Origin: Candidatus Aenigmatarchaeota archaeon
GTDB taxonomy: Archaea > Aenigmatarchaeota > Aenigmatarchaeia > QMZP01
Assembly: GCA_015520105.1 (NCBI GenBank)
Contig: WAQT01000010.1
Span: 1 to 57,004 of the forward strand
Length of the DNA: 57,004 nt
Direction of reading: 5' to 3'
Shown piece after piece: positions 5,120 to 49,908 of the stretch. Below the pieces are notes generated by a model. The model ran no database searches. It saw only the letters and a list, made by a program, of their open reading frames with translations, and had not been told where the DNA came from. The position numbers were made by a program, and so were the translations under genes. Numbering within the stretch: position 1 is the stretch's first letter; each line of letters opens with the position of its first letter.

Positions 5120-5423
5120 GCCCCCGTAGCTCAGCTGGATAGAGCACTGGCCTTCTATCCCATATCTCAGGATAGAAGATTCGAGGCCTTCCGGCCGGTG
5201 AGAGGAAAGCCAGGGGTCGTGGGTTCAAAACACAAGAAGGGGAACACATTTCCCCTTCTTAGTGTCGTATCATCCCCTTTAGTACAGGATAACAAGGCAA
5301 GGGTTAACCGATAGTGCAAATGGAGAGGGAACCAAAGTTCCTACTCTTGTATCGTCTATCATGTCACAGGATAACAGGCAACACCATTAACTGGGGATAT
5401 AGAGGGGAATCCCTCCGGGGGCA
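5120..5423 (+). tRNA. tRNA-Arg(UCU) with two introns (about 5158..5207 at 37/38; about 5230..5408 in the T-loop)
   Basis: Acceptor GCCCCCG/CGGGGGC+A. D-arm GCTC-AGCTGGATA-GAGC. Anticodon stem CTGGC/GCCAG with loop CT-TCT-A. T-arm GTGGG-TTCAAA[intron]AT-CCCTC, which implies one U-U mismatch at 50:64. Confidence 0.7.
5250..5333. repeat. Conserved T-loop-intron module (copy in tRNA-Arg)
   Basis: The core 5268..5333 (TATCATCCCCTTTAGTACAGGATAACAAGGCAAGGGTTAACCGATAGTGCAAATGGAGAGGGAACC) matches 26858..26924, differing by one substitution and one 1-nt indel. Confidence 0.85.
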
Positions 5424-5426
5424 CAT

Positions 5427-5707
5427 GGGACCGTGGTGTAGTGGCATCATTGGAGCATGGGGCAGAACCCTTTTACGGGAGGCTGCCGCCTTCCTCAAAA
5501 GCGTTCACGGAAAATGTAAAAGGGTTTTACGGAGCGCTTCAGACCTGGGTTCGATAGAACCCTTTTGGACAGGCAAGCGTCCAAAAGCGTTCACGGAAAG
5601 ACAGCTTCCGCGTAACAACGGGAGCTGACGCTTCCGAACCCTTTTGGACAGGCAAACATCAACGCTTTTGCGTGCCTCCAGAAGGAACGGAAATCCCAGC
5701 GGTCCCA
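5427..5707 (+). tRNA. tRNA-Pro(GGG) with two introns (5463..5534 at 37/38; about 5555..5692 in the T-loop)
   Basis: Acceptor GGGACCG/CGGTCCC+A. D-arm GTGT-AGTGGCA-TCAT. Anticodon stem GGAGC/GCTTC with loop AT-GGG-G. T-arm CTGGG-TTCGA[intron]AT-CCCAG. It starts 3 nt after tRNA-Arg. Confidence 0.7.
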
Positions 5708-8765: not shown

Positions 8766-8805
8766 ATCAATTTCCTCCGGGTGCGGACGTTCGGCCAGCC
8801 TGAAG

Positions 8806-9040
8806 GCCGGAAGCGTGAGCTCCTGTTGTGTTTACCTGCATGTTTTCCGTACACGCTTTGGCGGAAGCGGGTGCCTGCCTGGTCATAACCAACTACATTG
8901 CGGACCAGGATTGCTTTGTGAGCTCCCGTCTTTGTTTTCAAGGGGTTTGGGTCAACAGCCTTTGGAGCACCTTCTCCTGCTCCCAACAGAAGGTGCATCA
9001 AGAGGGAGCTGACCGCTTCCATCCTGCGGCAGCCTCGAAA
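8806..9040. repeat. Intergenic repeat island 1 (modules shared with tRNA introns and island 2)
   Basis: 8830..8859 resembles 12391..12419. 8968..9033 matches 12446..12510 at roughly 94%. 8994..9020 is the exact reverse complement of 26627..26653 inside tRNA-Glu intron 1. Confidence 0.85.
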
Positions 9041-9094
9041 GGCTGTTAAGAACTAATTAATTATAATGGAATCGGGGGTTTATATAGGATTGTG

Positions 9095-12285: not shown

Positions 12286-12339
12286 GTTTTTATTTCCCGG
12301 TAGGTCTTAAATTGTTGGAGGGTTTTCCTCAGTGCTTAG

Positions 12340-12673
12340 AAGAGGCGGATTCGCGAGTTTCCGCTTCCATGTTGCGGAAGCATCCGTTACGTTTACCTGC
12401 ACGTTTTCCGTACACGCTTGTTTCCGTCAGGAAACTCCCTGCCGGCACCTTCTCCTGTTCCCAACAGAAGGTGCATCAAGAGGGAGCTATCGCTTCCATC
12501 CTGCGACAGCGTCTGTTGCGTTTACTTTGCGTATTTTCCGTACACGCTTGTTTCCGTCAGGAAACTCCCTGCCGTCAGGCAGAGGATTGCGGAAGTGTAA
12601 ACTCCCGTAAAAGGGTGTGCGGTAGCGGTGTTTCCGTGAACGCTTTAGCGCGCTTGCCTGCGCTAAAGGGTTC
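12340..12673. repeat. Intergenic repeat island 2 (internal 40-nt duplication plus modules shared with tRNA introns)
   Basis: 12404..12443 is identical to 12534..12573 (40 nt). 12446..12510 matches 8968..9033. 12631..12673 is an inverted copy of the tRNA-Pro intron unit at 5557..5599. Confidence 0.85.
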
Positions 12674-13978
12674 TTACCAGCACACGCCTTCAAAACCATC
12701 GACTTTCTTGGGGTCCAGCGCCCTCCTGCCCTCTATTATCACACTTCCCCTCATCGCGGAGAAATCATCGTCCGTGAGGTCCCTGAACTCCCTCCATTCG
12801 GTCACGACAAGGCAGGCATCCGCTCCCTTCAGGGCCTCTTTCGCGCTTTCTGCGTAGCCTATCTTCGGGAACGCTTTCCGGAAGTTGAACATTGCCTTCG
12901 GGTCGTAGGCGACCACGCCGGCTCCCTGCCGGATAAGTTCGCTCACTATGCGCAGCGCAGGGGATTCCCTGACGTCGTCTGTCTCGGGCTTGAACGCGAG
13001 TCCGAGGACAGCGATTCTCTTTCCCTTGAGGGAACCGATTCTTTTCTTAAGGAGGTCTATCATCCTGTAGGGCTGCCTTGAGTTCACGTTTATCACCTCC
13101 TTCAGAAGGGAGGCGTTGTAGCCGAGCTTCTCTGCCTTGCTCACGAGGGCGAGGACGTCCTTGGGGAAGCATGAGCCTCCAAACCCTATTCCGGCCCTGA
13201 GGAAGTGGGGAGATATCCTGCTGTCCAGACCGACGCCCTTCATAACTTCATAGGCGTCTATCCCGAGCTTCTTGCAGATGTTCCCTATCTCATTCGCATA
13301 GGTTATTTTCATTGCAAGGAATGAGTTTGAGGCGTACTTTATCATCTCCGCCACCTTTAGGGAAGTTCTCAACACAGGGGCCGCAAATCCCCTGTAGAGA
13401 AAGGCGAGCGTCTCTCCGGAACGCGGGTCAAGCTCTCCTATCACTATCCTGTCCGGGTTGAGGAAATCCTCGAGCGCGCTTCCCTCCCTGAGGAACTCTG
13501 GATTCATGCACACGCCGAAACCGGGACCCGCCTTCTTTCCTGAACCCTCCTCGAGGTTCGGAATCACCACCCTCTCAGTGGTTTCTGGCGGGACAGTGGA
13601 CTTGACCGCAACCACATGGTAATGCTCCTTCAGCCTCAGGGCCTTTCCTATTGCCTTTGAGGAATCCTCTATATACCTTAAATCAGTATCTCCGTTCCTC
13701 CTTGACGGCGTCGGGACGCATATGAAGGTTATCTCCGACTCCGAGACAGCGTAATCGAGATTCGTGGTCGCCTCTATATTTCCCTCTCTTCTCAGTTCCT
13801 TGAGCATTTCCCTCAGTCCAGGCTCGTATATCGGGCTCTCTCCGGAGTTTATCCTTTCCACCTTTTCCTTGTCTATGTCCATGAGTATGGTCTTGAATCC
13901 CTTCTTTGAGAAGCCGACTGCTGTGGTTAACCCGACATATCCTGCGCCTATCAGCGATATCCTTACCTGCTTCCTCAT
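12674..13978 (-). CDS. ugd: UDP-glucose 6-dehydrogenase
   Basis: 434 aa with N-terminal GAGYVGL Rossmann motif, catalytic GFGGSCFPKD, and a C-terminal UDP-binding domain. Confidence 0.8.
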   Translation of the reverse strand: MRKQVRISLIGAGYVGLTTAVGFSKKGFKTILMDIDKEKVERINSGESPIYEPGLREMLKELRREGNIEATTNLDYAVSESEITFICVPTPSRRNGDTDLRYIEDSSKAIGKALRLKEHYHVVAVKSTVPPETTERVVIPNLEEGSGKKAGPGFGVCMNPEFLREGSALEDFLNPDRIVIGELDPRSGETLAFLYRGFAAPVLRTSLKVAEMIKYASNSFLAMKITYANEIGNICKKLGIDAYEVMKGVGLDSRISPHFLRAGIGFGGSCFPKDVLALVSKAEKLGYNASLLKEVINVNSRQPYRMIDLLKKRIGSLKGKRIAVLGLAFKPETDDVRESPALRIVSELIRQGAGVVAYDPKAMFNFRKAFPKIGYAESAKEALKGADACLVVTEWREFRDLTDDDFSAMRGSVIIEGRRALDPKKVDGFEGVCW

Positions 13979-26452: not shown

Positions 26453-26961
26453 GCTCCCGTCGTCTAGCCCGGTCAAGGATACGAGCCTCTCGAATGAGCT
26501 TTTCTCAAGGAAAAAGCTCAACCAACAGGAGGCTTCCGCCTTCCAAGGGGGTTTTCCTCAAGGAAAAAGCTTTGCGGAACAAGCGTGTCACGACTCAGCT
26601 CCCTAAAATGGTTGGGAAGGTGCAAAGGAAGCGGTCAGCTCCCTCTTGATGCAAGAGGTTAACCTTTTGCGGAAGCGAGCGCGAGCGAAGCTCCTGTAAA
26701 AGGTTAGGGAGCAGGAGAAGGTGCAAAGGAGAAAGCTCGGGACGCGGGTTCAAAGCGCAAGAATGGGGACACATTCGTGCCTCGTCAATGAGGATTGTGG
26801 CACGAGACATCTCTGCAATGGTTATATTGGAGATGCAGATCCCCCTTCTTACCGCACTATCATCCCCTTTAATACAGGATAACAAGGCAAAGGGTTAACC
26901 GATAGTGCAAATGGAGAGGGAACCCAGGTTCCCCTCTGCGGTGGGAGTCCCGCCGGGAGCA
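26453..26961 (+). tRNA. tRNA-Glu(CUC) with two very long introns (26493..26733 at 37/38; about 26755..26947 in the T-loop)
   Basis: Acceptor GCTCCCG/CGGGAGC+A. Anticodon stem CGAGC/GCTCG with loop CT-CTC-G. T-arm GCGGG-TTCAAA[intron]T-CCCGC. Confidence 0.7.
26840..26924. repeat. Conserved T-loop-intron module (copy in tRNA-Glu)
   Basis: Near-identical to 5250..5333 in tRNA-Arg. Confidence 0.85.
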
Positions 26962-28421: not shown

Positions 28422-28629
28422 GGGCCCGTGGCTTAGTGGTTAGAGCGCCCGACTGATACAGGTTTCCCCTCGAACAGCAGCAGGGGCATGCCTGTGGATA
28501 TCGGGAGGTCGTGAGTTCGATACACCGCTTTTTACAGGAGCTTTCGTTTCCTCCAAAAGCGGTGGAGCAAAAACAGGCACAGTTAACCGATAATTCGGTT
28601 AACAGTGAACGAGAATCTCACCGGGCCCA
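28422..28629 (+). tRNA. tRNA-Ile(GAU) with two introns (28459..28499 at 37/38; 28521..28614 in the T-loop)
   Basis: Acceptor GGGCCCG/CGGGCCC+A. D-arm GCTT-AGTGGTTA-GAGC. Anticodon stem CCCGA/TCGGG with loop CT-GAT-A. T-arm GTGAG-TTCGA[intron]AT-CTCAC. Confidence 0.75.
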
Positions 28630-28813: not shown

Positions 28814-28933
28814 TGGACCGACCGGGATTCGAACCCGGAGCCTCCGCCTGTTTCCGAACCTTGCGCTTCTGTTGAGGGAGTGTTGCCCGAAGGTTCTTGC
28901 GAAAGCGGCGATCTACCATTGATCTATCGGCCC
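28814..28933 (-). tRNA. tRNA-Ala(CGC) with one canonical intron of about 48 nt
   Basis: On the minus strand: acceptor GGGCCGA/TCGGTCC with a G3:U70 pair. Loop TT-CGC-A. T-arm CCGGG-TTCGAAT-CCCGG. No encoded CCA. Confidence 0.8.
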
Positions 28934-38777: not shown

Positions 38778-39716
38778 ATGGCAAGGGTTCTTGTCACAGG
38801 AGGCGCGGGGTTCATAGGCTCGAACATAGCTGAGGCCCTTCTGGAGAAGGGTTATGAGGTCAGGGTTCTTGACAACGAATCTACCGGAAACAGGAAGAAT
38901 CTCTCAGGCCTTGCGGGTCTGGAATTTCTCAGAGGCGACATAAAGGATATGGAAACCGTGAGCAAAGCCATGGAAGGCATTGATTTCGTGCTTCACCAGG
39001 CAGCGCTGCCCTCTGTGAGCAGGTCTGTGGAGAATCCTCTGGAGACCAACGGTGTTAACGTGGAGGGGAGCCTTAACGTTCTCGAGGCAGCGAGAAAGAG
39101 GGATGTTGAAAGGATAGTGTACGCCTCATCTTCTTCGGTTTATGGCGACACCGAGATTCTGCCCAAGAGGGAGGACATGGAGCCGAAACCCCTCTCTCCC
39201 TATGCGGCGAGCAAGGTCGCGATGGAATATTACTTCTCGGTGTTCAACAACGTTTACGGGATAAAGGCAATCGGCCTTCGATACTTCAACGTCTACGGCC
39301 CGAGGCAGAACCCTGAATCCGAGTACGCTGCTGTTGTTCCGAGGTTCATAAAGGCGGTTCTTTCCGGAGAGAGGCCTGTGATATACGGCGATGGAGAGCA
39401 GACAAGAGACTTCACTTATGTAAAGGACGTTGTTCAGGCAAACCTGCTTGCGATGAACGCGAAGGGAATCGGGCATGAGGTGTTCAACATAGCGAGGGGG
39501 GAAAGGATAAGCATAAACAGGCTGCTGGAGATGATATGCAATATCGCTGGAAGGGACGTCAGTCCGGAGCACAGGGAACCGAGGAAGGGAGACATAAGGG
39601 ATTCCCTTGCGGACATAAGCAAAGCCAAGGAGAGGATTGGATACTCTCCTGAATACGATATAGAGAAGGGGTTGAGGGAAACCGTTGACTGGTTCAGGGC
39701 GAGGACGGATGCTTGA
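38778..39716 (+). CDS. NAD-dependent UDP-sugar 4-epimerase (WbpP/TviC-like)
   Basis: TGGAGFIGSN, HQAALPSVSRSVENP, SSSSVYGD and YAASK motifs. Confidence 0.7.
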   Translation: MARVLVTGGAGFIGSNIAEALLEKGYEVRVLDNESTGNRKNLSGLAGLEFLRGDIKDMETVSKAMEGIDFVLHQAALPSVSRSVENPLETNGVNVEGSLNVLEAARKRDVERIVYASSSSVYGDTEILPKREDMEPKPLSPYAASKVAMEYYFSVFNNVYGIKAIGLRYFNVYGPRQNPESEYAAVVPRFIKAVLSGERPVIYGDGEQTRDFTYVKDVVQANLLAMNAKGIGHEVFNIARGERISINRLLEMICNIAGRDVSPEHREPRKGDIRDSLADISKAKERIGYSPEYDIEKGLRETVDWFRARTDA

Positions 39717-48993: not shown

Positions 48994-49908
48994 TCATTCG
49001 ATGTTCCTTATGTAATGCCTCGCGGCCTTTCTCACAGCCGCCTCGGAGTCAAGCTTTGGTTCCCATCCAAGGGATTTAAGCCGCGATGTGTCAAGAAGCA
49101 TTACCGGAACGTCTCCCTTCCATCCCCTGTCCCCGCCAGTGAAAGCGAATTCCGGGGCAACGTCCATCTCCTCGCACACTATCTCCGCTATCCTTTTCAC
49201 CTTTATCTGCGTTTCGGAACCGACGTTGAATATCTGAAATCCCTTTGTTTCGCGAAAGCCTGTGAGCATTCCGTTTATCGTGTCCTCCACATCAAGGTAT
49301 GACTTGTTCTGCTCGCCGTTTCCAAGAATCTCCAGACGATTGGGGTTTCTTTTCAGCTTCCTGACGAAGTCGAAGACCACGCCGTGATCTGAGCCTTCGC
49401 CTATTATGTTTGCGAGCCTGAATATCCACGCATTCATTCCGAATGTGTGGTGGTAGGAAGACAGGAGCGCCTCGCATGAGAGTTTTGACGCTCCGTATAC
49501 TGATATGGGCTGGAGGGGAGAGTAGTCTTCTGGTGTGGGGATGACTCTGGCCTCTCCGTAGACAGCGGAGGTGGACGTGAACACGATGTTCTTCGCTCCG
49601 GAAGAACGCATCGACTCAAGGAGGCGGAACGTGGCGAGTATGTTCTGATTGATGTCCCTTTCCGGACTCTTCTCTCCCGACCTTATGTCCCTGTTCGCAG
49701 CAAGATGGAACACGGTTTCCACTCCGTCGAGCAGGTTGGAAAGATTATCTGTCAGAAGGTCTGCCCTGACAAATTCTATGTTTTCGTGTTTGAGAGGATT
49801 GTTTCCGGACGAGAGGTTGTCGACCACTCTAACGCGGTGCCCCTCGCCCGCAAGCCTTTCTGCCAGATGGGAGCCTATGAATCCCGCGCCTCCTGTGACA
49901 AGCATCAT
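48994..49908 (-). CDS. NAD-dependent epimerase/dehydratase (SDR)
   Basis: LVTGGAGFIGSHL, TSTSAVYG and YGASK motifs. Confidence 0.7.
   Translation of the reverse strand: MMLVTGGAGFIGSHLAERLAGEGHRVRVVDNLSSGNNPLKHENIEFVRADLLTDNLSNLLDGVETVFHLAANRDIRSGEKSPERDINQNILATFRLLESMRSSGAKNIVFTSTSAVYGEARVIPTPEDYSPLQPISVYGASKLSCEALLSSYHHTFGMNAWIFRLANIIGEGSDHGVVFDFVRKLKRNPNRLEILGNGEQNKSYLDVEDTINGMLTGFRETKGFQIFNVGSETQIKVKRIAEIVCEEMDVAPEFAFTGGDRGWKGDVPVMLLDTSRLKSLGWEPKLDSEAAVRKAARHYIRNIE

Follow-up and report, generated by a model that had tools for sequence, protein, structure and literature searches.

According to passages in PMC4033280 and PMC4090602, which cite Fujishima 2010, similar introns in different tRNA species of the Thermoproteales have been read as the result of intron transposition. 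As recounted there, these introns were gained duplicatively at the DNA level, and a single gene can contain multiple introns. The introns of a tRNA-Arg and a tRNA-Glu gene described here resemble them in both respects. They differ in that the host is a DPANN-like archaeon rather than a crenarchaeote, and in that the introns are 94-241 nt in length whereas <100 nt is usual. In addition, they are mosaics with lineage-specific insertions and very uneven conservation, and two copies are documented in 57 kb, namely the entire stretch of DNA that was analyzed (hereafter, the window), as opposed to a genome-wide cluster.

The DPANN lineages show increased disruption of their tRNA genes (PMC5829648). 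Relaxed BHB motifs, including those of DPANN members, have been tied to splicing endonucleases of broad specificity; the EndA types with this property include ARMAN-2 epsilon2 and L3-loop alpha4 (PMC3239211, PMC5829648). The genes of the window are like the disrupted tRNAs of DPANN members with respect to the DPANN-like host, the noncanonical intron positions, and the relaxed motifs (a helix and a bulge with a poor inner helix), and here too the standard predictors cannot complete the tRNA set. Homology between introns and a modular make-up, however, are not part of those descriptions (PMC3239211, PMC5829648), and the EndA of the present host is encoded outside of the window.

Two other systems are relevant. 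An archaeal tRNA-Trp intron bears a C/D box sRNA (PMC4090602), and a nested functional RNA of this type would account for the higher conservation of a core relative to its surroundings, as observed here. In contrast to that intron, the present ones display neither C/D boxes nor a match in Rfam, and the core is situated in the T-loop instead of at 37/38. In Caldiarchaeum subterraneum, the disruption of tRNA genes is driven by a mobile element (PMC3293823). The likeness lies in intron gain that is linked to the recombination of repeated DNA in a natural population. There the element is 1.8 kb in length, carries a recombinase gene, and is accompanied by population heterogeneity, whereas the present locus contains no protein-coding element and is near-invariant across assemblies, with one substitution.

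Intron copying has already been described in other archaea; the introns considered here are much longer and are assembled from reused modules. It is likely, in our judgment, that the Arg and Glu elements are BHB-type, protein-spliced introns at position 59/60 that are paralogous and were copied at the DNA level between tRNA genes. Duplicative tRNA-intron gain, as known for the Thermoproteales, would thereby be extended to a DPANN-like archaeon.

The tRNA genes and their introns

The window, which comes from an uncultivated hot-spring archaeon, is an unremarkable piece of chromosome bearing housekeeping genes. Its genes include those for class I LysRS, AspRS, PCNA, ribosomal protein L18, enolase, TreT, ScpA/B, and aTrm56, and those for glycosyltransferases are numerous. 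Among named proteins, the closest to LysRS and TreT come from Aenigmarchaeota, Micrarchaeota, and Woesearchaeota MAGs with amino acid sequence identities of 50-64%, and it is for this reason that the host is referred to as DPANN-like. Genes for a splicing endonuclease (EndA), ligase (RtcB), recombinase, reverse transcriptase, or transposase were not found in the 57-kb window.

Nine introns are distributed across five tRNA genes in the window (Table 1). The Arg, Pro, Glu, and Ile genes were found by hand reading, spliced by hand, and subsequently submitted to ARAGORN. In the spliced forms, the acceptor, D, anticodon, and T arms are all intact and the anticodon loops are correct, and ARAGORN recognizes these forms as normal cloverleaves. 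Restoration of the cloverleaf upon intron removal, as is characteristic of protein-spliced tRNA introns, was thus observed for Arg, Pro, Glu, and Ile. Note that the T-stem of tRNA-Arg contains a U50-U64 mismatch. The gene for tRNA-Glu requires 509 nt to encode a tRNA of 75 nt. The tRNA-Arg gene ends at 5423 and the tRNA-Pro gene starts at 5427, leaving a gap of 3 nt; the two are probably carried on a single transcript with four introns.

When the unspliced window was searched, ARAGORN and the Rfam tRNA model detected one of the five genes, that for tRNA-Ala, and the other four fell below the Rfam gathering score. Use of ARAGORN with default settings, with its intron options, or with a lowered threshold resulted in either tRNA-Ala only or 135 meaningless calls. 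A scan of the window for matching acceptor and T-stem pairs, which recovers Pro, Glu, Ile, and Ala, provided no further tRNA candidates. With four of five window genes invisible to both ARAGORN and the Rfam tRNA model, tRNA sets that look incomplete are explained, and genome annotations of the host lineage will under-count tRNAs.

Table 1. Coordinates of the tRNA genes, introns, intron segments, and intergenic regions in the window
Feature	Position	Strand	Remarks
tRNA-Arg(TCT)	5120..5423	+	exons 5120-5157, 5208-5229, 5410-5423; spliced form called tRNA-Arg(tct) by ARAGORN
tRNA-Arg anticodon-loop intron, 37/38	5158..5207 (50 nt)	+	central helix CTTC/GAGG, 4/4 pairs
tRNA-Arg T-loop intron, 59/60	5230..5409 (180 nt)	+	splicing restores T-loop TTCAAAT; TTCA/GGGG, 3/4 pairs
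Arg hairpin 1	5230..5265	+	ACAC-AAGAAGGGGA / TCCCCTTCTT-A-GTGT; homologous to the arms of Glu hairpin 1
Conserved core, Arg copy	5268..5333 (66 nt)	+	
Arg-specific segment	5350..5401 (52 nt)	+	diverged partial duplicate of core start (TATC..ACAGGATAACA.GGCAA..TTAAC)
tRNA-Pro(GGG)	5427..5707	+	spliced form called tRNA-Pro(ggg) by ARAGORN
tRNA-Pro introns	5463-5534 (37/38, 72 nt); 5556-5693 (59/60, 138 nt)	+	TTCG/CGGA, 4/4 pairs (59/60)
Region A	~8766-9050	-	non-tRNA intergenic, upstream of scpA; Pro/Glu intron modules
Region B	~12286-12680	-	non-tRNA intergenic; Pro/Glu intron modules
tRNA-Glu(CTC)	26453..26961	+	exons 26453-26492, 26734-26754, 26948-26961; spliced form called tRNA-Glu(ctc) by ARAGORN
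tRNA-Glu anticodon-loop intron, 37/38	26493..26733 (241 nt)	+	CTCT/GGAG, 4/4 pairs; internal repeats
tRNA-Glu T-loop intron, 59/60	26755..26947 (193 nt)	+	TTCA/TGGG, 4/4 pairs
Glu-specific insertion	26776..26839 (64 nt)	+	two hairpins, CGTGCC/GGCACG and CATCTC/GAGATG, in hairpin 1 loop
Conserved core, Glu copy	26858..26924 (67 nt)	+	
tRNA-Ile(GAT)	28422..28629	+	spliced form called tRNA-Ile(gat) by ARAGORN
tRNA-Ile introns	28459-28499 (37/38, 41 nt); 28522-28615 (59/60, 94 nt)	+	TTCG/CGAG, 4/4 pairs (59/60)
tRNA-Ala(CGC)	28814-28933	-	ARAGORN and Rfam tRNA model; canonical intron, 48 nt

Position 59/60 and the predicted splicing motif

The T-loop introns of Arg, Pro, Glu, and Ile are all located at 59/60, which is the T-arm equivalent, or structural twin, of the canonical 37/38 site. 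In the BHB layout, the T-stem provides the outer helix, 3-nt bulges can be placed, and the central helix is formed by four base pairs. Over the four T-loop introns, 15 of 16 central helix pairs are present; in the helix of Arg, one A-G mismatch is found and two of the pairs are G-U. R57 and its partner covary, being A57-T in Glu and G57-C in Ile and Pro. A sliding control put the fractions of intron positions that do as well as 59/60 at 0.15, 0.04, 0.02, and 0.02 for the individual introns. Application of the same geometry rule to the 37/38 introns of these genes yielded 13 of 16 pairs.

The inner helix (h') can be formed in Glu (CGC/GCG, +1 nt) and in Ile (CAC/GTG, +2 nt); Arg and Pro lack it. 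When the genes and regions A and B were scanned for a strict hBHBh' motif, the density of matches was no higher than that in coding DNA, and hence the scan was uninformative. Given the weakness or absence of the inner helix in Arg and Pro and the uninformative strict scans, the sequences support a predicted splice motif of the relaxed class only, and not a strict BHB. The Arg junction is ambiguous from the sequence in that cuts from 57/58 through 59/60 yield an identical mature tRNA. A cut at 59/60 in Ile and Pro would give the T-loop TTCGATT, a less usual form. A self-splicing group I or group II ribozyme core was not matched by Rfam in the intron regions, either at the gathering threshold or at E <= 10.

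In the splicing scheme proposed here, the T-stem of the pre-tRNA would serve as the outer helix, and T54-R57 would pair with a purine-rich tetranucleotide positioned 3 nt upstream of T60. The splice sites would lie in the 3-nt bulges next to the central helix, or in a 5'-side loop, such that the cuts would fall after nucleotide 59 and before nucleotide 60. A splicing endonuclease of broad specificity would cleave the pre-tRNA, and an RtcB-type ligase would presumably join the exons.

The last 8-11 nt of the Arg, Glu, and Ile T-loop introns begin with a copy of the 5' strand of the host T-stem (5402-5415, 26938-26953, and 28605-28621, respectively). These pseudo T-stem strands are GAGGG in Arg, GCGG in Glu, and GTGA in Ile, with that of Arg being a perfect complement of CCCTC where the real T-stem has the U-U mismatch. 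A pseudo T-arm can thus be formed from the intron end and the 3' exon; by a rough estimate, ~0.3 such cases are expected by chance in four introns. The pseudo T-arm may be a remnant of how the introns were inserted, or else a different fold available to the pre-tRNA.

Comparison of the Arg and Glu T-loop introns

An earlier note on this DNA had put forward the insertions in tRNA-Arg and tRNA-Glu as homologous T-loop introns. Indeed, the spliced forms are canonical, and the two introns are collinear from the first to the last nucleotide as judged by segment-by-segment alignment and inspection. The core, for which one substitution and one 1-nt indel had been reported, aligns in precisely this manner when the window is compared with itself using BLASTN (5268-5333 versus 26858-26924, 65/67 columns, 1 mismatch, 1 gap, 97.0% identity, E ~1e-26). 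The homology at the 5' ends, given as TTCAAA[A/G]C[A/G]CAAGAA.GGGGA(A)CACATT and closing on CCCCTTCTTA, is likewise present at 5224-5261 and 26749-26851. In the same BLASTN comparison, the T-arm and intron start (5221-5250 versus 26746-26775) are 87% identical, and with a longer word the match extends over 5252-5341 and 26842-26932 with 90% identity over 91 columns. A profile built from the two copies finds just two strong matches in the window with nhmmer (E 1e-33), and neither BLASTN nor nhmmer revealed additional copies of the core within the 57 kb.

The conservation is strikingly uneven along the introns. Identical columns number 18 of 22 in the intron start and left arm of hairpin 1, 12 of 18 in the right arm of hairpin 1 and the linker, 65 of 67 in the core, 10 of 16 in the distal part of hairpin 3, and 5 of 8 in the last 8 nt of the intron. 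The segments outside of the core are thus 63-82% identical (70% overall), and the difference between the core, with 2 of 67 columns differing, and the remainder, with 19 of 64, is significant (Fisher p = 2e-5). In the predicted fold, the single substitution and the indel of the core are confined to a loop or a loop edge. At its base, hairpin 1 has the helix ACAC/GTGT in Arg and GCG/CGC in Glu, such that the pairs are exchanged with compensation (A-T/C-G/A-T versus G-C/C-G/G-C). Hairpin 3 is retained in both introns. Both introns are strongly structured, with fold z-scores of -4.0 for Arg and -2.8 for Glu.

Each intron also contains a segment of its own. The nested insertion of Glu had been described as ~65 nt and composed of two named hairpins; it is 64 nt in length (26776-26839) and folds as both. 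Inspection of its borders revealed no BHB motif, terminal inverted repeat, or target-site duplication. The possibility that the insertion is a spliceable nested intron was considered and rejected on inspection, given that no central helix and bulge geometry fits its borders. The region of Arg encompassing most of its private segment, 5354-5407, can be aligned to positions 22-79 of the core profile (nhmmer, E 0.84 window-wide).

With respect to possible function, TGATGA is absent from all of the introns and CTGA is absent from the Arg and Glu T-loop introns, so that no C/D boxes are found in the core. Neither the core nor the introns match an Rfam family, and the T-loop introns contain no ORF longer than 47 codons; coding capacity is likewise lacking in the core. 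A scan with ACAGGATAACARGGCAN{1,12}TTAAC, a pattern built on the motif that is most repeated in the core, yielded one match in 185,579 species genomes and three in JGI metagenomes, which hold relatives at ~60% protein identity; all were chance matches with no extended similarity. Viral contigs likewise gave nothing above chance for this motif. At the stringency of the pattern scan, the core element is not conserved beyond the host lineage.

The T-loop intron of tRNA-Ile had also been said to share a shorter piece with this pair. What stands of this is one 11-mer, GTTAACCGATA, which is found exactly at 5303, 26894, and 28582 (28582-28592 within the Ile intron); the flanking resemblance is loose. 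With one mismatch allowed, there are three matches in the window versus 0.54 expected, and the Ile copy was not recovered by nhmmer. The link of tRNA-Ile to the Arg and Glu introns would accordingly be suggestive only.

Modules shared with intergenic regions

The tRNA introns of this host are long mosaics of reused, structured modules, some of which also occur in intergenic, presumably transcribed spacers, and the Arg/Glu pair is one case of this wider habit. The two introns of tRNA-Pro (37/38 and 59/60) have GAACCCTTTT and CAAAAGCGTTCACGGAAA in common. The sequence GCGTKYACGGAAA is present in six exact copies in the window (eight when one mismatch is allowed, versus 0.17 expected), two of which lie in the tRNA-Pro introns and four in regions A and B. 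A 27-nt module of the Glu anticodon-loop intron (26627-26653) is identical to 8994-9020 in region A.

Regions A and B share a 70-nt repeat that is 93% identical, and within region B a sequence of 87 nt is repeated in tandem at 85%. The module copies are all oriented in the sense direction of local transcription. The regions are highly structured, with fold z-scores of -2.6 and -6.4, and they contain no tRNA exons and no Rfam match. That they might be hidden tRNA genes was rejected on the basis of the scan for acceptor/T-arm pairs, which recovered Pro, Glu, Ile, and Ala and nothing in A or B.

A module of the form GAACCCTTT-hairpin-AAAGCGTTCACGGAAA is found at 5556-5581 (+) and at 12648-12673 (-). 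Its 6-bp stem differs entirely between the two copies (TTGGAC/GTCCAA versus TAGCGC/GCGCTA), yet is still complementary, and the loop, AGGCAAGC, is kept. As read from the two sequences, these differences represent the textbook compensatory pattern of a conserved hairpin. A search of viral contigs with three module sequences gave 0, 0, and 33 matches, with the 33 being single 16-mers at the level of chance.

Sequence conservation in the sampled population

The same population, at 99.9-100% identity, is represented in ERZ23495063 and ERZ23495177 (ENA), GCA_027054295.1 and GCA_026999905.1 (NCBI), and SRR10312498 (Logan). The intron copies are base-for-base the same in independent assemblies (n=3 for Arg and n=2 for Glu), and therefore the repeat is not an assembly chimera. 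The Arg locus through the intron is identical in four assemblies, and the fifth (GCA_026999905.1) has a T->C change at 5251. This position is the first base in the right arm of Arg hairpin 1, and the change yields CCCCCTTCTT, the run found in the Glu copy.

In five other assemblies of this population, contigs end inside the introns. The ends are positioned at 5244 and 26653 in the Logan assembly, 5265 in GCA_026999905.1, 5465 in ERZ23495177, 5479 and 26659 in ERZ23495063, and 26659 in GCA_027054295.1. Such breaks hint at further copies of the modules elsewhere in the genome or at their variation in the population.

A route to orthologous introns by way of synteny with LysRS and TreT relatives was abandoned because in the homologues at ~63% identity no tRNA genes adjoin these genes. 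A LysRS relative with 81% identity is encoded on a 1.5-kb contig that ends before the tRNAs.

Origin of the Arg and Glu introns

As with the transposed introns of the Thermoproteales, the Arg and Glu introns are more alike than the tRNA bodies that host them. The sequence identity is 97% in the core and 84% over the alignable intron (110/131 columns), and it is 69% for the mature tRNAs and 60% for tRNA positions 1-48. This ordering, on which the proposal of intron copying between tRNA genes in the earlier note is upheld, argues that the introns are paralogues produced by gene-to-gene copying. No origin other than such copying makes sense, since a similarity of this degree cannot have been kept through vertical descent from the split between the Arg and Glu tRNAs. 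The common insertion site, which had been offered as additional evidence of copying, does not serve this purpose. All four T-loop introns use 59/60, with that of Pro being built from different modules, and thus the shared site is not independent evidence.

It could be argued that the core and its flanks represent a generic dispersed repeat, either MITE-like or spread by recombination, which resides in transcribed non-coding DNA and survives in introns since it is spliced out. The likeness between Arg and Glu would then reflect the insertion of a module into unrelated, pre-existing introns. Other intron modules are clearly not specific to tRNA genes, as can be seen from GCGTKYACGGAAA, with two exact copies in tRNA-Pro introns and four in intergenic DNA, and from the 27 nt of the Glu anticodon-loop intron that recur unchanged at 8994-9020. 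Part of the Pro T-loop intron is also 76% identical to 12590-12674 over 85 columns, and the contigs of other assemblies break within introns. For the Arg/Glu element, however, the homology spans the intron start, hairpin 1, the core, hairpin 3, and the 3' end in the same order. There is no third copy of the core in the 57 kb, and the window has no transposase gene. Neither the core nor the 64-nt insertion is flanked by terminal inverted repeats or target-site duplications on inspection, and a core with two window copies, both in T-loop introns, does not have the attributes of a MITE. Collinearity of the whole intron favors intron copying, and we regard a dispersed repeat as an improbable source of this element; the scenario is kept alive for the other modules. 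A broader proposal, to which we would assign little weight, is that the tRNA introns are built from genome-wide structured RNA modules, which together would constitute a non-autonomous mobile element that spreads through non-coding transcripts, with reverse splicing or ligation and subsequent recombination as one conceivable mechanism, and that also inhabits mRNA leaders and intergenic spacers. BHB introns would then offer it a refuge, and the 66-nt core would be an RNA under selection, possibly in a stable circular form.

The disparity between the core, at 97% identity, and the remainder, at 70%, could alternatively signify that the core is a functional intron-borne RNA, such as a stable circular RNA, a protein-binding element, or a guide, that is held by purifying selection after copying that is old. 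The placement of its one substitution and one indel in a predicted loop or loop edge and the compensated changes in the flanking stems are in keeping with this idea, and the archaeal tRNA-Trp intron with its C/D box sRNA (PMC4090602) provides a precedent. On the other hand, the core belongs to no Rfam family, has no C or D boxes, and gave chance matches only in the pattern scans of the 185,579 species genomes and the JGI metagenomes; moreover, two copies afford no power for a test of selection. This explanation is considered unlikely, albeit one to be taken seriously. Far less credible is the notion that the intron-laden genes are decaying pseudogenes or that the similarity is an artefact of assembly. 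The standard tRNA finders do miss four of the five genes, and there is the U-U mismatch in the Arg T-stem, but the four spliced products have all arms intact and correct anticodon loops, and the splice-site helices are maintained. Furthermore, different samples yielded three to four independent assemblies with identical sequences, and the surroundings are ordinary chromosome with housekeeping genes.

Under the favored explanation, namely intron copying between the tRNA-Arg and tRNA-Glu genes, one intron would have been copied at the DNA level from one tRNA gene to the same structural site of another. The most economical route would start from the near-identical T-arm exons (GGGTTCAAA ... TCCC.CCGGG.GCA), which would seed recombination or gene conversion. 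Following this event, the intron ends and the basal helix would have been altered with compensation, Glu would have gained the 64-nt two-hairpin expansion in hairpin 1, and Arg would have gained the 52-nt partial tandem duplication. The near-identical core would be due either to selection on the intron RNA or to later short-tract gene conversion, and the two copies fit either. The spread had been called "recent" in the earlier note. This description is apt for the 66-nt core, but given the lower identity of the remainder (p = 2e-5), the compensatory changes, and the private indels of 52 and 64 nt, recency does not apply to the copy as a whole. Arg and Glu form a clean pair with a readable history, from copying to compensatory adaptation of the ends to nested expansion. 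The uneven conservation and the intergenic reuse of modules make the origin and spread of noncanonical introns testable, and several assemblies of the population exist.

Additional repeats in the window

In the 241-nt anticodon-loop intron of tRNA-Glu, sequences close to the intron's own splice junctions are repeated. The segment from 26485 to 26518, which includes exon nucleotides 30-37, is 76% identical to that from 26538 to 26571. In addition, GAAGGTGCAAAGGA is found at 26616 and at 26717, with the second copy located beside the 3' junction. From its sequence, it looks as if one copy of the intron had been inserted into another.

A 32-nt inverted repeat with 97% identity (38790-38821 and 49871-49902) is positioned at the 5' ends of two NAD-dependent epimerase genes, and it most likely corresponds to the paralogous N-termini of these enzymes.
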